NCBI GenBank assembly: GCA_001563335.1
Contig: LRSL01000080.1
Span: 1-15,519 of the forward strand
DNA: 15,519 bases
Reading direction: 5' to 3'
From: Candidatus Thorarchaeota archaeon SMTZ1-45
Lineage (GTDB): Archaea > Asgardarchaeota > Thorarchaeia > Thorarchaeales > Thorarchaeaceae
The first letter of the stretch is position 1. Every line of letters starts with the position of its first letter. Made by a program: the position numbers and the translations under genes. The notes under the pieces were generated by a model. It made no database searches. It was not told where the DNA came from and saw only the letters and a program-made list of their open reading frames with translations. Below, piece after piece: positions 2,276-13,777 of this stretch.

Positions 2276-3073
2276 TCATCCAAGAGTTTCCACACGCACT
2301 CTAGGAATGGGTAAAGGTTTCCTTTTATGTTCTGAATTCTTCATCATCTTGAGAGCTTTTTTAACTTTGATTTTGTCAATACCCCACTCAACTATCTCTC
2401 CCTCACTCATGTCCCTCTCGAGACACAGGTAGAGTATACTGTCTAGTTCTGCATAGGATATCCCAATTTCTCCTTCATCAGTCTGACCTTTCCAGAGACC
2501 AGCCGAAGGTACTTTTTCTATGATTTTTTTGGGAATTCCCATAAAACGCGATAGACTCCATACGTTCTCTTTATACAAATCCCCAATAGGAAGAATATCT
2601 GTGCCACCGTCTCCATACTTTGTGAAGTATCCTATCATCAACTCTGTTTTGTTACCTGTTCCTAAGACAAGAAGATTCTCTTGATTTGCTCTAGCATACC
2701 ATGCTACCATCCTTAACCGAGCTGCGAGATTCCCGAGTGCTACACCATCAAGTGATAAAGAGTCATATGCGGCTATAGCCCCTTTAAGCTCAAACAGCTC
2801 ATGTTTCATTTGTAGGGCTTCAGCTAGATCAACTGCATCCGCAATGTTTTCTGCATCTTTCTTTGCATCTACAGGTAGCATAATACCATGAACTCTCTCA
2901 GGTCCTATTGCTTCGCAGGCTAAGGTGGCAACAAGACTTGAATCAATGCCGCCACTCAAGCCCAAGATTACCCCCCTAACCCTAGCCTGAGATACATAGT
3001 CTTTGATAAAGTTAACAATTATTTCCCTCGGTCTTTCAAAATCATCAAACTTGAGTCCATCTGGGAGTTCCAT
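2276..3073 (-). CDS. nadE: NH3-dependent NAD+ synthetase
   Basis: PP-loop GLSGGIDSS, GNLAARLRM, GTGNKTE, GYFTKYGDG, PSAGLWKGQTDE and SEHKR motifs. No glutaminase domain. Confidence 0.97.
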   Translation of the reverse strand: MELPDGLKFDDFERPREIIVNFIKDYVSQARVRGVILGLSGGIDSSLVATLACEAIGPERVHGIMLPVDAKKDAENIADAVDLAEALQMKHELFELKGAIAAYDSLSLDGVALGNLAARLRMVAWYARANQENLLVLGTGNKTELMIGYFTKYGDGGTDILPIGDLYKENVWSLSRFMGIPKKIIEKVPSAGLWKGQTDEGEIGISYAELDSILYLCLERDMSEGEIVEWGIDKIKVKKALKMMKNSEHKRKPLPIPRVRVETLG

Positions 3074-3168: not shown

Positions 3169-3861
3169 CTATGCTCCAAGTAGTAATGTTTCAATCAAGA
3201 AAAAGAAGAATGATGTATTACCAATATAGAAAATCATCACAGCGAATGCACCAGCAAGCTTCATCCAGATTTTCTTATCTTTGATGATTTTGTAGGAAAT
3301 GAAAGTAGAAAGACCTAGGAAAAGCTCTGGGATGATGATATACCATGCAAGGTTTCCAGTCATGCCGCTCACAGTGGCTGACCATGACGGGAGATAGACA
3401 AGGGTTAATTCAGCGAGCACAAATATCAGGACAGTGAGTATAGATACAACGATGAACGCTAGTTTTCCAGATTTTCTCTGCTGAACTTGAACTCCTGTGA
3501 ACACAATTATGAAGAATGGCATTGTCCAAAGTCCAGCCATGTAAATGGGAATAGCTCCACCAATCATTGGGAATCCGTCAACTGGAAATTGAAGAGCTCC
3601 AAGTGTTTCAGAGAGATACCAGTCAGGAAACACCATTAAAAGACTCAGAATGAACGAGAATGTCCAGATACTCATCCATTCTTCAAATCCAATCCGTAAT
3701 CCCTGAAGCATCACCAATCCGTTGTAGATTATGACAACGATTAGTAACTTTGCACTGATTGGAGCTGTAACCGGTATCAAGAGTGTCATAGCTGTGAGAA
3801 TTGCAAAGATGATGTGAGTTACAAAGAACTCTCTAACTGATTTATCCCTCAGTATTTGCAT
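3169..3861 (-). CDS. Integral membrane protein (~7 TM), resembling the DUF6989 family
   Basis: About seven hydrophobic helices and a conserved-looking core PDWYLSETLGALQFP..GFPMIGG.IPIYMAGLWTMPFF. The family name is from recall, not a search. Confidence 0.75.
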   Translation of the reverse strand: MQILRDKSVREFFVTHIIFAILTAMTLLIPVTAPISAKLLIVVIIYNGLVMLQGLRIGFEEWMSIWTFSFILSLLMVFPDWYLSETLGALQFPVDGFPMIGGAIPIYMAGLWTMPFFIIVFTGVQVQQRKSGKLAFIVVSILTVLIFVLAELTLVYLPSWSATVSGMTGNLAWYIIIPELFLGLSTFISYKIIKDKKIWMKLAGAFAVMIFYIGNTSFFFFLIETLLLGA

Positions 3862-4006: not shown

Positions 4007-4900
4007 TTGTCAGAAAAAATAGGGCAGTTAGATCTAGTTTTTGTTGTTGACAATACTGGATCTATGGGACCATATATTAACACAGTGAAGACCAAGATTC
4101 TAGAAATCATTCGCACAATCAAAAAGGAGGAGTTATGTCACAGACTTAGGGTAGGTCTTGTATCGTACAGAGATCATCCTCCCGAAGAAACATCTTATGT
4201 CACACAGAAATATGAGCTATCACCTGATACAACAAAGATTGAAAGCTATGTAATGCAAATGGATGCATCTGGCGGCGGAGATGGTCCAGAGGCTGTATCA
4301 ACCGCTCTTCAAGTAATGAATAAGATGGAGTTCCTAAACGAGTCAGCTAAGATAGCTGTTTTGATAGGAGATGCTCCGCCTCATGGAGTTGAGCCTGGAG
4401 ACCGTTGGCCCCGGGGCACACCAGATGGTGCAAAGTGGTCTGAGGAGGCAAAGAGAGCCTTTGGAAGGGGAATTGTTATTCATACCGTAGGATGCTTTCC
4501 AGAAATTGCAGGCTATGAGAATGCAGTGAAGACTTACGAAAGAATTGCTGCTGACTCTCAAGGAAGATTTTTCCCCCTTGAGAAAGCTGATCTCCTTGTC
4601 AATATTATAACAGGAATTGCTCTGGAAGAGATCGACAAACTAGCAATTCAGAAGACAATTCTCGAAGATATGGGTGTCAGTGTGGATGATTTCCCTGCTG
4701 ATGAGGAATTCACTGAGGAGAAGATATCAGAGATTGTTGCTAAGGTTCAAGCAAAAGGTGTAAAGAAACGTGCAATGGCTGAAAGGCCAGCAAGTACACC
4801 TGCCATGGCTAAGGAAGACTTGAGAATGGAAGAGCAAGAGATAGATGAAGCTGACATCCGTGAGGCTGTACGACAGCTGAAATCCAAATCACGAAAATAA
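4007..4900 (+). CDS. von Willebrand factor A (vWA) domain protein, VwkA/hemicentin-like subtype, cytoplasmic
   Basis: TTG start preceded by GAGGAG. MIDAS DLVFVVDNTGSM, plus LRVGLVSYRDHPP, ASGGGDGPEAV and LIGDAPPHG. Charged helical C-terminus; no signal peptide. Confidence 0.92.
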   Translation: MSEKIGQLDLVFVVDNTGSMGPYINTVKTKILEIIRTIKKEELCHRLRVGLVSYRDHPPEETSYVTQKYELSPDTTKIESYVMQMDASGGGDGPEAVSTALQVMNKMEFLNESAKIAVLIGDAPPHGVEPGDRWPRGTPDGAKWSEEAKRAFGRGIVIHTVGCFPEIAGYENAVKTYERIAADSQGRFFPLEKADLLVNIITGIALEEIDKLAIQKTILEDMGVSVDDFPADEEFTEEKISEIVAKVQAKGVKKRAMAERPASTPAMAKEDLRMEEQEIDEADIREAVRQLKSKSRK

Positions 4901-4987: not shown

Positions 4988-7900
4988 TTAACTCTCCTCA
5001 TCATCACTACTCTTCGATCCCATCTCTTCGAGTTCTAATAGAGCCTCAAGCTGATCCTTTGAAAGCTTCTTCAGTTCATCTTTGCCAATTGATTCTTTCA
5101 CTTTTTCTGGAAGTTGTTCAATGAGCTCTTTTTTACTTAGACGTCTGCTTTCCTCTGATTCTTTGACCTCTTCCTCTATTTCGAATTCTTCTTCTATTAG
5201 AGGTGTTTCTGTAATCTCAGACTCGAGATCTGCATCAGGCTCGAAATACGATCCTACATCAAATGAGGTGTCAGTTACAACAGCCTCATCTGCAATTTCA
5301 ACAAGTGTCTTGTCATCATCATGTTTCTCCCGTCTGCTACGAGATACACTTGTGATACCTTTCGCCATCTTTGAGGAAACATACGGGACAACCACCAAGA
5401 ATACAACAGGCATAAGAACGATGACACCCAGAGAATAGCTCTTCAGGAAATCCATTGTTAATACAGATGTGCCCGCCAATACTACGAGGAACATGAAGAA
5501 TTTCGTACGGATTGATGAACCTAGCTTTTCTACTAAATCCACACATTCTTGCTCAACAACGATCGGAGGTGTACCAAGTACAGCCATCTCTTTGATTCGT
5601 GAGAGTCCCTTACTTATTTCTCTGTAGAGGTTGACAACAACTATCACAATCGATGAGATGTAGGCTGCAAAGATTGTTAGCATTATGGTTGGAACCGTGA
5701 GTTCACCAAGGTGGAATACATTCTGTAACACATAGAAATCAAGCCATTCTATATGTTGTCCCCAATCGAATATCTGAATGATGACAAGTGGGACAAATAT
5801 CAAGTGCCACAGACCAAGGACCATCCTTCTCCTGCTCACAGCTTGTGATTGAAGAATAGTTGATGTAGCATCTCTGTATAGCCAAATGCCATACAAGATT
5901 AATGAAATCCCAAGTAGCAGAACACTCTCCAGTACAGCGAGGTTATAATCAGCAGCCCCGGCTGACGCATACGAATGAACGAGGGTCAAAGCTGCTAAGC
6001 CAACTACGCCAAGATAGAGATAGTCTAATCTTCTGAGACCTCGGATAAGTTGTTCTTGGGATCCTCTTGTAATTGAGAGGCCAGATGCAATCTTAAAGTA
6101 TAGAAGTAACCCGATGAAGCTAACGAGGAACGACCCTAACGCAAGTACTCCAAAGTTCTCCATATTTAGTGTAAGCTGCGGTGCTGGTACAATGACATAT
6201 GCAGGTACACTTCCAACTCCTGCAATGCATGTGACGCCTTCCGCACTTACAATGATAGAATCCTCACCAAATCCTACTCCTGTAACAATGAAACTCACAA
6301 AATATGTTCCTTTTTGTGATGTTTCTATTGCCACTTCTGTGTGATTGCGAAATGTCACATAGACTGAAAGACCAGACATAGGATTCCCATATTTGTCTGT
6401 AATCTCGATAGTGATGTTTACGAGCTCTCCCTTTACAGGCTGTTCAGGGGAATATTCAATATTGAAACGTAGCTCTGCAAGTATCTCGATAGACCCTCGA
6501 ATTGTTGCATCTTGGGATAAGAAACTATGAGCTACCATCAATGTGTAATTGAATATGCCTGCAGCCCAACCATCAGTTGATACCACTATCGAGTAGGTTC
6601 CATTTCCAAAGTCATTTAGGATATAGAATGAATCATGGATTAGGACTGAAACTGATCCCCCAATCATTACATTCCCAATCATATCTTCAAGGTTCAGAGT
6701 GAACAAGATGTCTTCCGTACCCTGAATATATTGAGTGTCATCAATTGGTGATATTACTGAGGTGATTGTATCACTCCATACACTTACATTCACGAGATGC
6801 TTTTCAACTGGAAAATGCACTCCAGAAACGGTGACATTGAGAACATATGACCCAGGCACAAGGTCTGGGAGTATTCTCCAAGATTTTAGAGAAGATGTAG
6901 ATGTACCAGATATTGTATATACGCCACCAAAATCAAAAATGTAATCATAGACATAGATTGGATTTCCCCATTGGTCAACAACACTAATGTCAAATGTCAC
7001 ATTCTCGTAGTTCAAAACTGTGTTTGGATTTGTTTGGACTGTGATGTGAGCACTACCCGTGATTGAGAAGTGCACATAGGCTGTGTACGTGTCCATGAAT
7101 CCTTGGGATGCTGTGATTTTCACTGTGTATTCTCCAAGTGGTAACTGTGTTGTGGAAATTGTCACAGTATAGATGCCTGGAGAAGTTTCCGTTAATGCGA
7201 AAGTACTACCAAGTAAGTCGAGTTCAACATCTGCTCCTGTAATGTTGAAGAATAGCTCATCCTGCACGTGCACAGTGAACTGAATTGGAGTTCCCTGAGA
7301 AAATGCAGAATAATCTGTTGGTGTAAGAATGCTTGCTGAAACTACTCCCTGAACATCAATGCTGAAGCTGAATGTTGAATGTAGTAAGTAAGTTCCATTG
7401 AGAGTCATGTTTAGAAAGTACTTGCCTGGTGTGAAGCTTGGGTCAACAGTCCAAGAGAATCTATAGTTTAATGCAGTTCCAGTTTGATTATATACTCCTG
7501 CAAAGTCCAAAGTATAATTGAAACCTGACAATGGGTTTCCATATTGGTCAGTCACAGTGAAATTGAATGTAACATCGTCCTTGTTTTGAACCGGGAATGG
7601 AGAATATGACAGCTTGACATCAGCGTAGCCTTCAAGTGATACAACCATCTGTATCTCTTGTGAGCTGAGATAAGTGTGAGTCACTCTGATTAATGGAATA
7701 TACTGCCCCAGTGGGAATCCTGCTGTTGGGATATTCCTAGTGTAAATTCCAGGAGCGCTTTCAGTCAGAAGATAACTGCTTCCATGGATTGTAACACTTA
7801 CTTGGCAACCTGATATATCATAACTAGCAAGGTCTTCCACAAAGACTGTGAAGTTTATCTGATCACCCTGTGCAATTATTGAGTTATTCAATGGAGATGG

Positions 7901-10900
7901 GACGCTTGAATTCGGAATTCCCCTAACATCAACCCAAATTGTGTATTCATAATGAGCAATGAAGTCACCATCAATTATGATATCAAGAGGATATGACGCT
8001 GGATAGAGATCTGGCAAAAATTCCCAACTCAGCTCATACCAATCAGATGTCCCTGACTTAGAGTAGGTCCCTGCAAAAATCAGTGTATAATCAAAGTCCG
8101 ACAGTGGATTTCCATATATGTCAATAACTGCAAAATACAGAGTCACAGTCTGATGGTTCCACACAAGTTCTGGTATTTCCACATCGACCGCCGCTTGACC
8201 GTTTACAGTCAATATTGTATGCAAATCAGCCTCAATCAAATATGGATGGTCTGCATACACAATCACTGAATAATTGCTTGGAGAATATCCATCTGTGTCC
8301 AGCGTCACGGAATAGGTTCCATCCCAGTTGTCAATGAAGGCGAGGCTACTTGGACTTAGCATTGTAACAGTTGCACCAGAAACTGGATTTCCATTCCAAT
8401 CTGAAAGCGTGAGTGTAAGAGATGTAGAGTCCCCTTGATTTAGAACCCATCCAAGGGGGGAGTCAAGAACCATGTTGGCCATTGAATATACATAGAGGTC
8501 ATGATAATCTAATCTCGAGTTACCAAAATCAGAACCTACATAGACAATGAAGTTCTGATGTCCAATAGCTAATGCTGCATTCAATTCAATGCGAAATTCA
8601 GCACCTGAAACATATAGAGCAGTGAAATTATTTCCATCAATTTCCACAATTGCCCAAGCGCCATCAGGGAATGCACCGTATGAATCATAGATGAATATTG
8701 AAACTGTGAAGTTTGCACCACCAGTGACGGAAGATGCATAGTTGACTACAGGGTAGAGGTCTCCTGTGACAACCATATAGAATTCGCCAAAGTTCCTTCC
8801 TTCAACATAAGGATGCTCCACAGTGATTTTAGCTGTGTAATTGCCAACTGGTAATGCAGCTGTGGTATTTAGCTGATACTTTCCTGGTTGAATCTCACTA
8901 AGTACAAATTCACTTCCATCAAAACCAATTCTTACATCAGCGCCATTGATGGAATTACCGTATGCATCAGTAATGTTAAGCCATATTTCGAAATACTGGT
9001 CTTGATTCACTTGACTTGGGGAGCTTCTAACAATGTTTAAAGTGTCTGTGAAGATTGAAACAGAGCTTGCTTGAGTCTTGACACCTGTTGCGTAGCTATG
9101 ATTAGCAGTAACAAGTAGTCCATAACTCCCAGGAGATTTTGTTACGCTTGGTATCATTACATAATAGAATTGCCCAATTTGTGTCGCTATATAATCCGTG
9201 CCATCAAATGTTAGTGTTACATCAGCATTTGCGACTTTACCACCAAGACTGTCAGCAACAGTAATGTTGACTTCGAGATTATTGCCTTGCAGCAAATTGG
9301 GCTCCCGTATCATTGAAATGGTCAAAGGTGACTCCACCCTCAATGCATCTGCTTGGAACTGCCTAAATGGATCATAGTAATCGTGATTTACATTGAGTGT
9401 CATGTTCACAATACCAATTGGCCAATTTGGAGCAATGGAGGTTGTATAGAGTTGCAACATCTCGTCGTAGACTAGACCTAGTGTTTGCTGGGTTGTGCCC
9501 CCTCCAAATTTATATTCAACTATCAAAGAAACCAAAGAATCATAGACTGGTTCATTGTATGCATTTAGAACTGTGGCATTAGCCCAGATGTTAATACCCT
9601 GAAGAGTTGTACTTGATTCTAAGGAAAAGGTGGTATTCATTATGTATAGGAGATCAATATTTCGGATGGTTGCTAAACTATATCGTGCACGTAGCACAGG
9701 GAATGCAGCTATGTCTTCACCAATCCCCACATCAACACTATTCACTTTAACCATATTGAATATCATTCCAATTTTAGCCTGATAGTCAACAATGCCTTGG
9801 AAACTAATAGCTGTAAGTATGTCGTCAGAAGTTGCAATTATAAACTCCTCTGCACCATCTCCATCATAATCCAATGTGGTTGCACTGGTTGGGAACGCTT
9901 CGCTTACAAACACAGTCCATTGCCTAGGTATTGCTACTCCTAGTTCGCATAGTGAAATGTTACCTGATTCCTCAAAGACAAACAGTTCGTCAATCTGGTC
10001 TGAGTCTATATCCTGGGGGAATATTCCCTTGATGTGATCCCCAAGCAGCTCTGTATATGGCGCATCTCCTACCTGCAGAGTCTGATAATCAATTAAACAA
10101 AAGTAAACTGTCGGAGTATCTCCTGACCAACCACTATATGCAGCCAGAAATTGTTCATTTGTGTGTGTGGAATTTAGATATTGGACAATACCAAGAGGCA
10201 TGTCTTCCGGTGTTGAACCCGGTGAAGAGTAATTTAGAGCTTTTAGCAATGTCAGATTGTAGGCTTGATAAATTTCTACTCTGCGGTTCTCTCTTAGAAT
10301 TGCTATCTGAGGTCTTGCTCCTGTAATAGTGGCATGAGCCATCCCTACAATCTCACTATTAACAGGCAGTGTATAATTAATAATGCTAGAGAAATCATGC
10401 TCAATCCTTCTGATTCTTATGGAAGAATAATTGCTCTCAATATAGTGAATTTCATCAAATCCATCTTGATCGTCATCGAAAACATTGATTGGTCTTTCTT
10501 CAAGAATTGGTATATCATTGAATGTTACGTTCTTCCAAGATGTCAGACCATTTCCATGAACCACATAGAACATTGTGTGAGTCGAGTTGTATCTTGTAAT
10601 CACTGGATCTAAAATTGAGTCGCCATCATGCATTCCTGAATATACTTCAAAGCTATCATAGGAGGTTGTTTTTCCAACCGTGAAGTTTGAGATAGAAGTT
10701 CCATTAGGTGCAAAAGTTCTGAGTGTTGCTATTCTTGAGGTGGTCCCCATTGTGATGATGTGAATCAGCTCATCACCAGCACTATTGTTTCCGACTGCTA
10801 ATACATGACCCATCGCATGGTCGATTGTTGCATTGAAATAAAATCCCTTGGCAAAATGGTCTTCAACACTAAGCGTTTCTGGATTAGTTTCATTTCCATA

Positions 10901-12496
10901 GGAAAACGAGTTAAGATATGCATCATCGACTTTGATATAATAGAGATATTCTCCTGCCTGCAAGTCGGTTGAAATGAAGATGAATTTATCATTTGGAGCT
11001 CTTATCATTTCATTTGGCATGAATGGTAGCATCATCCCTCCAGTTGTAGGTTTGATGTAAATTGTAGCACGTTCAACATGTATATTGTCAGTTGCTGTAA
11101 GCTCAATCTTCATGTAACTGTCATAGATTGTTGGGTGTGTTGGATACAACGGGTCTAAGAAAACGCTGGGGGTTTCAGTATCACTCAATAAGATTGAAAC
11201 ACTCTCCGTTAAAGTGATGATGTCCTCACGACCATCTTCATTGATATCAAAGGAAATTACTTGTTCGAATGGTCCTGGAAGTCGGTTTTCTTCGTATCCA
11301 ATTACTCCAGTGCTTCCTCTTATTATTGTCAATTGCCCTCGTGGACCTTCAACAGCCAAATCGCTATAGGAGTCAGAATCCAACCTTCCTATTGCAAATC
11401 CACTAGGCCAGTAGCTTGAAACCTCTTCCTGTGAATGTCTGATGAGTGTTCCAGTGCTGCCCTCAAAGAACCATGCGGTATACCACATCCCCCCAACAAG
11501 TACTAAATCATCTATTGAATCACCATTGAAAGATCCTGTTTTAACATAGAGTTCTCCAAAATAATCAGGTATCTTTTTGACAAAGCTAGCGGACAGATTG
11601 TTGCCATAAATTCCTACAAGTTCACTATTCCCCATATCTTGGTTCATCAGTGTTATAGCTAGATCATCAGACTGACTACGTTTAGTGTGAAGTATCATGT
11701 CATTGGCATATGACATGCTTGGATATTCAGTCCATCTTATTAATGATCCATCTCCAGCTATGATTTCAATTTTGACTCTTTGTGATCCCCAATTGGTACT
11801 GAGAATTGCAATCTCATTCTGTGATGATATTGAGAAATTCCCAGCAACAGCACATTTTATCTCTGTAGTAGGGTTGTATGGAGGTCCAATTTGACTTCCA
11901 TCACTAAGGTCAATCCTTATGACAGAATCCATGTTATAGATGGCGGCATCAGTCCGAGAATCCGCAGTGAAGTTTCCAAAGATAATCTCGAATGGCCAAG
12001 GTACAGGACAGTCATAGTTTGTAACTAAACTAGCATCGAAATCAGCAATGACTAGTTGCTCACCCAATGTTAGATTTCTCATAATAAATAGGAATTCAGT
12101 ATACCCGTCATTGTCTATATCGAATCCAGTAAGAGTCTCATGAAAAATTTCGCCCGGTCCGATTGGAAGTGAGTCATTCAATTGGTTGACAGGATCCTTG
12201 AAACGTATTGTTTCCCCATGGACATAGGCGAATCCAGATCCTATTGGGATTACACCTGGAGCAATTGATTCCACCTTATATGGTAACTTGACCCTGATGA
12301 AGTTGGAAGCTGTAGAAAAGCCAGTTTCAAGAGGAATGACATCTCCAATTTCTATGGGCTGCACCAAACCCATGTCTGAGGTTGGAGTTAATAGAAAGAG
12401 TATCGTGACCAAGACTACACCCCATTTTAGTAGGTCGGAGTGTCTTCCAGAATGTGTTCTCACAATTGGTCTGAATTTTGATGTGGATGATATCAA
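4988..12496 (-). CDS. Giant cell-surface glycoprotein: signal/anchor, FG-GAP beta-propeller regions, 12 Ig-like repeats, 7-TM domain and acidic cytoplasmic tail
   Basis: TTG start with GGTGA SD (12506-12510). N-terminal hydrophobic segment WGVVLVTILFLL. DxDxDG-type Ca-binding blades (DIDNDGYTE, FNGDSIDD, LDSDSYSD, DINEDGRED, HDGDSILD, DDDQDGFDE, DIDSDQIDE, DYDGDGAEE). Twelve ~96-aa repeats with D..GNP..G..V motifs, seven hydrophobic helices at about aa 2115-2375, and dozens of NxS/T sequons confined to the ectodomain. Confidence 0.92.
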   Translation of the reverse strand: MISSTSKFRPIVRTHSGRHSDLLKWGVVLVTILFLLTPTSDMGLVQPIEIGDVIPLETGFSTASNFIRVKLPYKVESIAPGVIPIGSGFAYVHGETIRFKDPVNQLNDSLPIGPGEIFHETLTGFDIDNDGYTEFLFIMRNLTLGEQLVIADFDASLVTNYDCPVPWPFEIIFGNFTADSRTDAAIYNMDSVIRIDLSDGSQIGPPYNPTTEIKCAVAGNFSISSQNEIAILSTNWGSQRVKIEIIAGDGSLIRWTEYPSMSYANDMILHTKRSQSDDLAITLMNQDMGNSELVGIYGNNLSASFVKKIPDYFGELYVKTGSFNGDSIDDLVLVGGMWYTAWFFEGSTGTLIRHSQEEVSSYWPSGFAIGRLDSDSYSDLAVEGPRGQLTIIRGSTGVIGYEENRLPGPFEQVISFDINEDGREDIITLTESVSILLSDTETPSVFLDPLYPTHPTIYDSYMKIELTATDNIHVERATIYIKPTTGGMMLPFMPNEMIRAPNDKFIFISTDLQAGEYLYYIKVDDAYLNSFSYGNETNPETLSVEDHFAKGFYFNATIDHAMGHVLAVGNNSAGDELIHIITMGTTSRIATLRTFAPNGTSISNFTVGKTTSYDSFEVYSGMHDGDSILDPVITRYNSTHTMFYVVHGNGLTSWKNVTFNDIPILEERPINVFDDDQDGFDEIHYIESNYSSIRIRRIEHDFSSIINYTLPVNSEIVGMAHATITGARPQIAILRENRRVEIYQAYNLTLLKALNYSSPGSTPEDMPLGIVQYLNSTHTNEQFLAAYSGWSGDTPTVYFCLIDYQTLQVGDAPYTELLGDHIKGIFPQDIDSDQIDELFVFEESGNISLCELGVAIPRQWTVFVSEAFPTSATTLDYDGDGAEEFIIATSDDILTAISFQGIVDYQAKIGMIFNMVKVNSVDVGIGEDIAAFPVLRARYSLATIRNIDLLYIMNTTFSLESSTTLQGINIWANATVLNAYNEPVYDSLVSLIVEYKFGGGTTQQTLGLVYDEMLQLYTTSIAPNWPIGIVNMTLNVNHDYYDPFRQFQADALRVESPLTISMIREPNLLQGNNLEVNITVADSLGGKVANADVTLTFDGTDYIATQIGQFYYVMIPSVTKSPGSYGLLVTANHSYATGVKTQASSVSIFTDTLNIVRSSPSQVNQDQYFEIWLNITDAYGNSINGADVRIGFDGSEFVLSEIQPGKYQLNTTAALPVGNYTAKITVEHPYVEGRNFGEFYMVVTGDLYPVVNYASSVTGGANFTVSIFIYDSYGAFPDGAWAIVEIDGNNFTALYVSGAEFRIELNAALAIGHQNFIVYVGSDFGNSRLDYHDLYVYSMANMVLDSPLGWVLNQGDSTSLTLTLSDWNGNPVSGATVTMLSPSSLAFIDNWDGTYSVTLDTDGYSPSNYSVIVYADHPYLIEADLHTILTVNGQAAVDVEIPELVWNHQTVTLYFAVIDIYGNPLSDFDYTLIFAGTYSKSGTSDWYELSWEFLPDLYPASYPLDIIIDGDFIAHYEYTIWVDVRGIPNSSVPSPLNNSIIAQGDQINFTVFVEDLASYDISGCQVSVTIHGSSYLLTESAPGIYTRNIPTAGFPLGQYIPLIRVTHTYLSSQEIQMVVSLEGYADVKLSYSPFPVQNKDDVTFNFTVTDQYGNPLSGFNYTLDFAGVYNQTGTALNYRFSWTVDPSFTPGKYFLNMTLNGTYLLHSTFSFSIDVQGVVSASILTPTDYSAFSQGTPIQFTVHVQDELFFNITGADVELDLLGSTFALTETSPGIYTVTISTTQLPLGEYTVKITASQGFMDTYTAYVHFSITGSAHITVQTNPNTVLNYENVTFDISVVDQWGNPIYVYDYIFDFGGVYTISGTSTSSLKSWRILPDLVPGSYVLNVTVSGVHFPVEKHLVNVSVWSDTITSVISPIDDTQYIQGTEDILFTLNLEDMIGNVMIGGSVSVLIHDSFYILNDFGNGTYSIVVSTDGWAAGIFNYTLMVAHSFLSQDATIRGSIEILAELRFNIEYSPEQPVKGELVNITIEITDKYGNPMSGLSVYVTFRNHTEVAIETSQKGTYFVSFIVTGVGFGEDSIIVSAEGVTCIAGVGSVPAYVIVPAPQLTLNMENFGVLALGSFLVSFIGLLLYFKIASGLSITRGSQEQLIRGLRRLDYLYLGVVGLAALTLVHSYASAGAADYNLAVLESVLLLGISLILYGIWLYRDATSTILQSQAVSRRRMVLGLWHLIFVPLVIIQIFDWGQHIEWLDFYVLQNVFHLGELTVPTIMLTIFAAYISSIVIVVVNLYREISKGLSRIKEMAVLGTPPIVVEQECVDLVEKLGSSIRTKFFMFLVVLAGTSVLTMDFLKSYSLGVIVLMPVVFLVVVPYVSSKMAKGITSVSRSRREKHDDDKTLVEIADEAVVTDTSFDVGSYFEPDADLESEITETPLIEEEFEIEEEVKESEESRRLSKKELIEQLPEKVKESIGKDELKKLSKDQLEALLELEEMGSKSSDDEES
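6170..9650 (-). repeat. Protein-level tandem array of 12 Ig-like (Big_1/invasin-like) domains
   Basis: Recurring (Q/N)G..(I/V).F.V.V.D..GN.(I/L).G..V motif counted 12 times (NAYNEP, DSLGGK, DAYGNS, DSYGAF, DWNGNP, DIYGNP, DLASYD, DQYGNP, DELFFN, DQWGNP, DMIGNV, DKYGNP). Boundaries approximate. Confidence 0.8.
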
Positions 12497-12700
12497 TTTT
12501 TACAATCACCTTTTGAATCTTCAACAATCATACTTTGGTGCAGCATGCATGAACTGGCCTAAATACGACCTTCCAATCATTGTACTATTCGCAGTATCTG
12601 TATTTAGGATTCTTAGCATGTAATAATTCAAAAAATCAGAAATTGCCTAAATTTTAGAGAAAATTATGGATTGGACTCTCTGCAGAAATTTATAGAAGTT

Positions 12701-12902: not shown

Positions 12903-13349
12903 ATGTCAGATAGTCAAGAAGAACACAAGTATGATATGATTAGCAATTGGGTCAAAGACAAGATAGTCACGATTGAGATTGAAGGTAGGCATAATATTCA
13001 GGTTGCCACTCCCCCTGATTTTTGGTCTGAAAGTCCCAAAGACATATTATCCCCCGAGGAACTCTTCGTGGCTTCAGCTCTCTCATGCTATGGTGTTTCT
13101 TTGCATGGAGTGGCAAAACGTTTCCATGCAGAGTTCAAAGATTTTCATCTATCTGCATCTGGTACCCTAAAGCAAGGAGAATATGGGTGGGAGTTTGCTC
13201 AGATTACAATCAAAGCGAAGATTGTGGTTGAAACTAAAAAAGATCAAAAGAGAATGGTAAAAGCGGCTGAAAGAGCGCATCGTTATTGTCTTGTTGCAAA
13301 CTCAATGAAGTGTCCAATTCATCTAGACTATGAAGTGGTAATCGGTTGA
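12903..13349 (+). CDS. OsmC/Ohr family protein
   Basis: SPEELFVASALSCY and AERAHRYCLVANSM motifs with both family cysteines; 148 aa. Confidence 0.9.
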   Translation: MSDSQEEHKYDMISNWVKDKIVTIEIEGRHNIQVATPPDFWSESPKDILSPEELFVASALSCYGVSLHGVAKRFHAEFKDFHLSASGTLKQGEYGWEFAQITIKAKIVVETKKDQKRMVKAAERAHRYCLVANSMKCPIHLDYEVVIG

Positions 13350-13396: not shown

Positions 13397-13777
13397 TCAA
13401 TCCGGCAGTTGTGGGAGAAGAATCTCAGCTGAGTATTCCTCTCCGCATTCACAGTTCAGGTTCACTGACCATTTCCTTGGTACAGGAACATTGAATTCTT
13501 TGATGTGATCTTTTAGACTATTACGAACTCCATCTATCAGCTTAACATATGCATCAGAAAGAGTAACAATCTCTGTTGGAAAATCGAGGTCTGAAAGGAA
13601 GTATCTGAATGTTTTCTCACACTTCGGACATGCAGTCAGTAGCAGGTGTGTGACATCACCACAGTTTCCACATTTGATTTGATCGCGTTCGATTTTTGGT
13701 GCCAATGGGACATCCAATTCTAGATCATTTGAGTGACCACATACATAACAATAGTATCTCAAAGGGAGTTTTGGCAT
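13397..13777 (-). CDS. Hypothetical double zinc-ribbon protein
   Basis: CYVC, CGNC, CPKC and CEC give 8 Cys in four pairs. GAGGAG SD upstream of the ATG. Confidence 0.8.
   Translation of the reverse strand: MPKLPLRYYCYVCGHSNDLELDVPLAPKIERDQIKCGNCGDVTHLLLTACPKCEKTFRYFLSDLDFPTEIVTLSDAYVKLIDGVRNSLKDHIKEFNVPVPRKWSVNLNCECGEEYSAEILLPQLPD

Follow-up and report, generated by a model that had tools for sequence, protein, structure and literature searches.

We describe here a giant protein of 2,502 residues encoded on a contig of Candidatus Thorarchaeota archaeon SMTZ1-45 (the window, i.e. the whole stretch of 15,519 nucleotides that was analyzed). We class the protein among prokaryotic surface adhesins or modular multi-helix receptors; the membrane domain on which it is built is undescribed. 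Its seven transmembrane (TM) helices are better read as 1 + 6, that is, as a linker helix (TM1) followed by an autonomous six-helix core (TM2-TM7). Below we document the anatomy of the protein, its topology, its pattern of conservation and the reuse of its core under other ectodomains across Asgard archaea; we lean towards the view that it is an adhesin whose base couples to cytoplasmic partners. The host genome (3.54 Mb, 119 contigs, 87.7% complete) contains the window as its contig C80, and the protein is identical to entry P0001 of a public protein collection. The features of the gene, with residue numbers (aa) of the protein, are as follows.

4988..12496, minus strand: the giant gene including its stop codon (4988-4990), a single open frame of 2,502 aa with a TTG start at 12496 and no internal stop
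12362..12433, minus strand: hydrophobic segment near the N-terminus (aa 22-45), with basic residues ahead of it, Kyte-Doolittle peak 1.7-1.9
11168..12322, minus strand: beta-propeller 1, aa ~59-443, with an FG-GAP_3 repeat at 323-382 (Pfam); predicted local distance difference test (pLDDT) of the AlphaFold model 70-93
9467..10762, minus strand: second all-beta, propeller-like region, aa ~579-1010, with an FG-GAP repeat at 868-889 (Pfam, E 8e-5)
6197..9439, minus strand: immunoglobulin (Ig)-like stalk, aa ~1020-2100, ~1,080 aa, with Pfam matches to Invasin_D3, Big_1, Big_7, Wzt_C and Filamin
6095..6154, minus strand: TM1, the predicted linker helix (out to in), aa 2115-2134, followed by a basic cytoplasmic loop; from hydropathy and model
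5378..6022, minus strand: predicted six-helix core TM2-TM7, aa 2159-2373, AlphaFold pLDDT 89-97, with a beta-hairpin in the outer loop (aa ~2260-2269) and helices that extend far into the cytoplasm
5180..5377, minus strand: cytoplasmic continuation of TM7 (to aa ~2403) and, up to aa 2439, an acidic linker predicted to be disordered (pLDDT <50 over aa 2406-2439)
4997..5179, minus strand: C-terminal helical tail motif, aa 2440-2500, pLDDT 88-97

The protein had originally been predicted to have the layout of an adhesion G-protein-coupled receptor (GPCR). This held up as a description of layout: a large, adhesive and sequon-rich ectodomain, seven helices with a predicted N-out/C-in topology, and a cytoplasmic tail, a layout that is conserved. 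The seven hydrophobic helices at the C-terminal end are all present as first listed, at aa 2115-2134, 2159-2176, 2186-2207, 2225-2243, 2268-2291, 2333-2348 and 2356-2373. The second is the weakest, with a Kyte-Doolittle value below 1.5 in a 19-residue window; it is backed by the averaged hydropathy of 54 aligned family members, in which seven segments stand out, and by a helix in the AlphaFold model. Mean lysine plus arginine counts across the family were 0.44 before TM1, 0.12 in the TM2-TM3 loop, 1.0 in the TM4-TM5 loop and 0.63 in the TM6-TM7 loop on one side of the membrane, and 6.4 (TM1-TM2), 4.2 (TM3-TM4), 8.2 (TM5-TM6) and 4.5 (after TM7) on the other. By the positive-inside rule, this alternation puts the former outside and the latter inside; hydropathy, loop charge and model thus predict a seven-helix base in the N-out/C-in orientation. 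A different number of helices, a C-out topology, a match to a known transporter or anchor family and an unconserved bundle had been set beforehand as outcomes that would count against the prediction, and none of them was observed.

The membrane part was modeled with AlphaFold over aa 2100-2502 from an alignment of 54 sequences (mean pLDDT 82.7, predicted template-modeling score 0.67, core 89-97). The first four helices of the model span aa 2112-2140 (TM1), 2147-2180 (TM2), 2184-2217 (TM3) and 2222-2246 (TM4), and are followed by a short outer helix and the beta-hairpin (aa 2250-2269). TM5 spans aa 2270-2306, a helix at aa 2311-2347 begins in the cytoplasm and ends as TM6, and TM7 runs on as a cytoplasmic helix to aa 2403. 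Two residues of the base, F2336 and P2363, are invariant, and Y2161, D2209, W2251, G2264, P2269, S2282, Y2291, K2332 and L2337 are nearly so. They accompany a set of core motifs: WLYRDA at the end of TM3, IEWF..Y in the outer loop, NLYRE at the end of TM5, SSIR.KF at the start of TM6 and a proline in TM7. Comparison of TM2-4 with TM5-7 by hhalign found no internal 3+3 repeat (probability 2.9%).

Profile searches did not connect this region to known families. For aa 2100-2502, Pfam at E<=10 returned only the noise rows TMEM127 (E 0.13) and Ribosomal_L12 (E 1.6), with no match to the membrane-domain profiles of 7TMR-DISM or HisKA_7TM; NCBIfam gave no meaningful match for the membrane part, and a PDB profile search gave none below E 0.27. 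A literature search (full texts, without supplements) found no paper describing such Asgard proteins; the matching passages of one paper mention Asgard archaea merely as relatives of eukaryotes (PMC13466386). As far as profile comparison can tell, no described family includes the membrane module.

The membrane module is the best conserved part of the giant protein. In 13 full-length orthologues it is 73-89% identical, compared to 43-75% for the propellers, 51-84% for the stalk, 25-66% for the linker and 35-74% for the tail motif; in the distant orthologues, the module still shows 73-89% identity vs. 43-55% for the propellers. The same pattern was seen with a paralogue in the same genome (contig C44; L063:1324-6870, minus strand), a protein of 1,848 residues with an FG-GAP/Big_1 ectodomain, the seven-helix base and no tail: its membrane part is 43-48% identical to that of the giant protein and its ectodomain 32%. 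This shorter type (~1,830-1,900 aa) is the commoner form across Thor-type genomes.

Word-seeded searching with aa 2100-2400 recovered 87 proteins of 1,409-4,181 residues, query included, all at E<=2e-29. A phmmer (HMMER) search of 1.84 billion representatives yielded 99 proteins (E<=1e-3), of which 57 reached E<=1e-10 and 42 reached E<=1e-30; the module sits at the C-terminus of proteins 900-2,500 residues long or occurs in fragments. Within the phylum, a single-sequence search gave matches in 96 of 400 genomes, some of them to the tail only, and a family profile gave matches in 96 of 400 at E<=1e-5 and 90 of 400 at E<=1e-10, a few of the weakest probably reflecting just the zinc-ribbon columns of the alignment. 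By family, the profile matched 56 of the 85 genomes in the window's own family (f1), 4 of 5 in f27, 3 of 4 in each of f6 and f23, and 15 of 135 in f22. The protein family is widespread among Thor-type genomes. The source names seen among the relatives are all Asgard (Thor, Sif, Odin-labelled, Loki, Hel, Sigyn and Promethearchaeota, with one plain 'archaeon'), an Asgard-only spread that rests on the named matches, most matches carrying no name. The closest proteins bear the names of Thorarchaeota, Sifarchaeia and Promethearchaeota metagenome-assembled genomes, and the contig is therefore that of an Asgard archaeon, a taxonomy with which every source name seen among the relatives agrees. On the two points originally suggested for a check, the taxonomic range of the membrane region and its recurrence with other ectodomains, the outcome was Asgard by the names seen, and the same core under different ectodomains.

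This recurrence is seen in the distant relatives. Among 36 of these, Pfam identified BNR_2 (a sialidase-type propeller) in the ectodomains of 10, FG-GAP in 4 and CarboxypepD_reg in 2, and 9 gave no match to any family; in 17 of the 36, the membrane module is followed by a double zinc ribbon (PF12773). Relatives of the Loki, Hel and Sigyn types carry the same core under BNR propellers or beta-helix-like repeats, often together with the cytoplasmic double zinc ribbon. In some short relatives, a basic N-terminus that is not hydrophobic is followed by the counterparts of TM2-TM7 and by the zinc ribbon. One of them, P0195 (347 aa), is not marked as partial, and its cluster has members of 347, 348 and 267 residues from three assemblies. 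A search for short homologues gave 33 matches, mostly fragments on short contigs, and so provides no evidence for stand-alone forms in the Thor clade.

At one locus (G175:C162, L064), the two parts lie in separate genes. An open reading frame (ORF) of at least 904 residues, beta-helix-like and Ig-like, ends in a single TM helix and a basic tail, and a Pfam scan of this ectodomain ORF gave no match. One base past its stop codon, in another frame, begins a 345-residue ORF with six TM helices and a double zinc ribbon, preceded by GGAGGG seven bases upstream of its start. The helix equivalent to TM1 thus belongs to the ectodomain gene. The fused version of this ectodomain type is present in another genome (G127). 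The split is probably genuine, because the start of the P0195 cluster proteins falls at the corresponding position. A complex prediction for the TM1-bearing end and the 345-residue core ORF gave a median score of 0.32 against a mark of 0.34 and was not counted either way. The loop between TM1 and TM2 also varies in length, from 24 residues in the giant protein to ~70 in P0185 and P0203, which is consistent with an autonomous core to which a linker helix is joined. The giant protein itself carries the features by which we define the Asgard 1+6-helix base family, namely the core motifs, with the linker helix ahead of them where the core is fused to an ectodomain.

It should be noted that a gene for a small GTPase of the Ras family (Pfam Ras, E 7e-43; L064:934-1491, plus strand) lies tail-to-tail with the stand-alone core and zinc-ribbon gene at the split locus. 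Small GTPases are abundant in Asgard genomes, and this vicinity may be due to chance.

On the cytoplasmic side, the tail predicted at about 125 residues is present and measures 129 (aa 2374-2502). It is rich in E (21.7%), S (13.2%) and D (9.3%). Its terminal helical motif has the consensus RLTK.ELI.LLP.E.KE..G..ELKKLSK.QLE.LL, which is kept in 17 orthologue tails; in an alignment of 19 tails, K, E, L, L, K and L are invariant. The same motif ends two other giant proteins of the genome, each with a single TM helix and a long acidic linker: a protein of 2,363 residues on contig C46 (L060:843-7934, plus strand), with a signal peptide and its TM helix at aa 2081-2099, and a protein of 1,274 residues on contig C95 (L061:56-3880, plus strand). 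About three copies of it follow N-terminal HEAT_2 repeats in a 389-residue protein on contig C93 (L062:1020-2189, plus strand), a candidate cytoplasmic adaptor. In other genomes, the motif occurs in ORFs of 2,283-2,475 and ~400-444 residues. It has no Pfam match and no PDB sequence match (best E 0.013, over a 22-residue stretch), and among the shorter proteins of a 5.8-billion-protein set it was found only in orthologue fragments. We read the motif as a putative docking element.

On the outside, the hydrophobic segment at aa 22-45 is predicted to be a signal peptide or N-terminal anchor. The propeller assignments rest on Pfam matches to FG-GAP_3 (aa 323-382, E 6e-9) and FG-GAP (aa 868-889, E 8e-5), and on an AlphaFold model of aa 40-1030 built from an alignment of 13 sequences (mean pLDDT 60.4; 70-93 in the first ~400 residues). 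Propeller 1 of this model aligned with 7-8-bladed propellers at Z 25-28 and a root-mean-square deviation (rmsd) of 3.0-3.4 A, with Vibrio cholerae Bap1 at Z 24.9, and with integrin alpha propellers at Z 19.5-20.2 (rmsd 3.9-4.1 A). The second region is of medium to low confidence (pLDDT 55-87 to aa ~809, <50 beyond); with the whole aa 40-1030 model, Foldseek matched tandem-propeller proteins such as DDB1. In the stalk, Pfam recognized Invasin_D3/Big_1 at aa 1353-1400 (E 2e-17 and 2e-14), Big_7, Wzt_C and, at aa 2021-2075, Filamin; this last, Filamin/Ig-like domain is separated from TM1 by ~40 residues. The motif D-x-[YW]-G-N-P recurs at aa 1459, 1650, 1841 and 2034 (within 6197-8122 of the minus strand, aa 1459-2100), giving a super-repeat of ~191 residues, which suggests tandem pairs of Ig-like domains.

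The description of the ectodomain as rich in sequons was confirmed quantitatively: aa 46-2110 contain 45 N-X-S/T sites vs. 19.4 +/- 4.0 (maximum 31) in 1,000 shuffles. The membrane part and tail (392 aa) contain none, in agreement with the N-out/C-in topology. FG-GAP repeats are common in prokaryotic surface proteins, and the giant protein has the features of a prokaryotic FG-GAP/Big_1 surface adhesin: a secretion signal, FG-GAP and bacterial Ig-like repeats, and an extracellular location, with sequons confined to the ectodomain. The claim of integrin-type propellers on an Ig stalk survives in part. The Ig stalk and the FG-GAP repeats, on a generic propeller, are there; the legs are of the Big_1/invasin type and not integrin legs. 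Integrin alpha chains do share an FG-GAP beta-propeller head (represented by alphaIIb and alpha5 in the comparison above), Ig-like legs and a glycosylated type I orientation. However, WD40-type and bacterial propellers match propeller 1 better than those of integrins, the legs are of the Big_1/invasin/filamin type (none of the 14 Pfam families listed is one of integrin legs), and the single TM helix and short conserved cytoplasmic motif of integrins are replaced by seven helices and the long tail.

From these elements we propose the following role. The giant protein would be a cell-surface adhesin or receptor of Thorarchaeia-type Asgard archaea, predicted to be N-glycosylated, in which two FG-GAP propeller regions are borne on a long Ig-like stalk. 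The stalk would lead into TM1, which crosses the membrane and connects, via a short basic loop, to the autonomous core, whose helices are predicted to reach well into the cytoplasm. The core would be more than an anchor, acting as a coupling platform that holds the ectodomain on one side and shows a conserved cytoplasmic face with a lineage-specific output on the other. In the window's protein, this output would be the acidic, flexible linker with its terminal docking motif, common to the single-pass giants and, in triplicate, to the cytosolic HEAT-repeat protein; in relatives of the Loki, Hel and Sigyn types, it would be the double zinc ribbon. We infer that the core passes on, or organizes, contact, load or clustering to cytoplasmic partners, and we consider an adhesin with such a coupling base to be moderately probable. 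The contact- or mechano-sensing originally suggested for the protein may be one form of this coupling; the strong conservation of the membrane module and the lineage-specific cytoplasmic outputs make such sensing more plausible. If the core does couple the outside to cytoplasmic partners, it would define a new class of archaeal receptor.

Several points weigh against this proposal. The high conservation of the module could reflect packing constraints or an intramembrane function rather than coupling. The fold searches described below returned only generic helical bundles (best Z 10.1), and the fold therefore gives no functional hint. The C44 paralogue ends ~20 residues past TM7, so that an output domain is not obligatory. 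We found no conserved neighbor gene around the orthologues, the VWA gene next to the giant gene being kept in the same genus only. The split at G175:C162 could be a frameshift in one assembly. Lastly, the structures behind our readings of both base and propellers are predictions.

A broader and more tentative proposal, possible rather than probable in our judgment, is that an outside-in coupling system specific to Asgard archaea uses the core as its shared membrane adaptor. Interchangeable giant ectodomains, fused to the core via the linker helix or encoded by a neighboring gene, would dock on it, and contact or mechanical load would be relayed to cytoplasmic machinery via the zinc ribbon (Loki, Hel, Sigyn) or via a docking tail that HEAT-repeat adaptors recognize (Thor). 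If this were true, the role of integrins and adhesion GPCRs would have been invented independently in the closest archaeal relatives of eukaryotes. The contact of Asgard archaea with partners and surfaces bears on models of the origin of eukaryotes, and their surface proteins are, to our knowledge, almost unstudied.

The strongest alternative to a coupling base is that the seven helices are a reinforced but passive anchor, a firmer hold for a very large, load-bearing adhesin, with the tail as a spacer and no information passed. The other giants of the genome make do with a single TM helix, and anchoring is therefore the minimal role shared by all. The tailless C44 paralogue fits a passive anchor too, as do the lack of any enzyme or signaling domain in the giant protein (Pfam, NCBIfam) and of a conserved partner gene nearby. 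However, anchors are, as far as we know, usually the least conserved part of a protein, and here the module is the most conserved, including its cytoplasmic loops and outer beta-hairpin. Nor does an anchor readily explain a core that can have a gene to itself, together with a zinc ribbon, and that is reused under unrelated ectodomains across Asgard lineages. We thus regard a purely passive role as unlikely. Were it nonetheless correct, the protein would be a clean example of an adhesion-receptor-like layout without GPCR ancestry, and would guard against over-reading such layouts as eukaryotic signature proteins.

A second alternative is that the core has a membrane activity of its own, as a channel, transporter, scramblase or enzyme, gated by the ectodomain or acting on it (e.g. 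in export, glycosylation or lipid attachment). Conserved residues within the membrane are consistent with this idea (S2282 in TM5, a polar H/Q/N position in TM4, K2332, F2336 and P2363), although the invariant columns show no cluster of His, Cys or acidic residues of the kind that intramembrane hydrolases typically have. Fold searches with the aa 2100-2502 model, which effectively covered model residues 43-253 and little of TM1, TM7 or the tail module, placed pore-forming bundles among the best structural matches. VIA-align against 48,161 representatives gave Z 7.9-8.8 for the membrane domains of pentameric ligand-gated ion channels and Z 8.5 for ATP synthase subunit a, below a designed helical bundle (Z 10.1, rmsd 3.7 A over 154 residues), all in a range that the program's own notes describe as generic for helical proteins. 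HlyIII (PAQR, PF03006) was matched weakly by 3 of the 54 family members, the best at 19 bits vs. a cut-off of 26.2, and not by the giant protein; no transporter family was matched in Pfam, NCBIfam or PDB profiles. An activity of this kind therefore seems to us rather improbable for the core.

We also considered whether the protein might be a true, very divergent adhesion GPCR or a GPCR/rhodopsin-type homologue, i.e. an Asgard eukaryotic-signature protein. Adhesion GPCRs (class B2, such as latrophilins, CELSR and ADGRV1) share with it a very large multi-domain adhesive ectodomain, seven N-out/C-in helices and a cytoplasmic tail, and this common gross layout and topology is an argument for kinship. 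GPCR chains also appear among the weak rows of a Foldseek search against the PDB (E 0.35-1.1, TMq ~0.15, with mGlu2 at E 0.35 and BK2R at E 0.59), a search in which the best match had E 0.1, none reached E<=1e-3 and all TMq values were at most 0.21. However, when the top 990 Foldseek chains were realigned, A2A, GPR120/FFAR4, Y2, 5-HT1B, GABA-B and PAF receptors scored Z 6.4-7.1, below generic helical bundles (Z 10), with an rmsd of 13.8-16.4 A over 220-244 residues; the GPCR helices can be paired in order with those of the modeled base, but are packed differently. No GPCR or rhodopsin was present in the VIA-align top 50 of the 48,161 representatives. Pfam found no 7tm family, 7tm_2 included, in the whole protein (E<=0.1), the membrane part (E<=10) or the 54 members (E<=0.01), and no GAIN/GPS autoproteolysis domain in the whole-protein scan. 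Microbial rhodopsins carry a retinal-binding lysine in helix 7; TM7 of the giant protein (aa 2356-2373) has no lysine, and there is no bacteriorhodopsin-type Pfam match. The genome, at its 87.7% completeness, gave no match to G-alpha (PF00503). The 1 + 6 build, with a separable core that can stand alone without TM1, likewise sets the module apart from GPCRs.

Homology to GPCRs, rhodopsins, PAQR proteins and transporters was accordingly rejected on the basis of the Pfam, NCBIfam and PDB-profile searches and the fold comparison. The original prediction had sought a link to GPCR, rhodopsin, 7TM-DISM or HisKA_7TM folds, and none was supported; its caution that the GPCR likeness might be analogy only proved well placed, there being no profile link, no GAIN/GPS domain and no superposable packing. 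Taken with the predicted structure, these searches say that the giant protein is not related to GPCRs and resembles such receptors in layout only; divergent GPCR ancestry is very improbable. A last alternative, that adhesin and membrane protein genes were wrongly fused by assembly or annotation in a metagenome bin, might draw on the split arrangement in one relative and is scarcely credible, as the fused frame is open and collinear in many independent assemblies, with at least 13 full-length orthologues of 2,490-2,529 residues and open frames of 2,499-2,538 residues in other genomes.

Parallels to a coupling base are also found in prokaryotes. The bacterial 7TMR-DISM, 5TMR-LYT and HisKA_7TM receptors have a conserved helical core, varied extracellular domains and varied cytoplasmic outputs, and the Asgard family shares this prokaryotic design. 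Pfam gave no match to any of these three types even at E<=10. The Asgard family differs in having a zinc ribbon or a putative short docking motif in place of kinase or cyclase outputs, in its giant adhesin-like ectodomains and in being Asgard by the names seen. Giant prokaryotic Ig-repeat adhesins, e.g. Salmonella SiiE, are secreted or held by one helix. Like the C46 and C95 giants, they expose thousands of residues of Ig-like repeats on the surface; compared to both, the Asgard family adds the conserved six-helix core.

The genes around the giant gene are ordinary, among them a class I methyltransferase, a metallo-beta-lactamase-fold protein and a hexapeptide transferase, and the G+C content is 39-43% throughout the window. 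A tRNA scan and an Rfam scan of the window found nothing, and a look-up of RNA data for 4988-8000 listed no run. Further neighbors are the following.

2276-3073, minus strand: NAD synthase
3169-3861, minus strand: DUF6989 protein (E 5e-41), next to the VWA gene, with which it is syntenic at loci of the same genus
4007-4900, plus strand: VWA protein, 297 aa, cytoplasmic-looking, convergent with the giant gene
12903-13349, plus strand: OsmC
13397-13777, minus strand: small zinc-ribbon ORF, 126 aa, with several CxxC pairs and a weak double-zinc-ribbon match (E 0.0064, below the cut-off)

The VWA protein has a DxTGS start resembling a MIDAS motif and no signal peptide, and is 88-92% identical at 7 other same-genus loci. 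Downstream of orthologues in other genera, NIF3 or nitronate monooxygenase takes its place. A conserved operon partner was rejected, as this convergent gene is kept at only those 7 other loci of the genus.

The small zinc-ribbon ORF at 13397-13777 shares the strand of the giant gene and lies ~900 bases upstream of it, and distant relatives of the giant protein have a double zinc ribbon fused to them. Its closeness to the giant gene is probably a coincidence. Two further ORFs on the plus strand, of 118 residues (5082-5438) and 111 residues (12288-12623), are antisense to or overlap the giant gene and are most likely shadow frames rather than genes.

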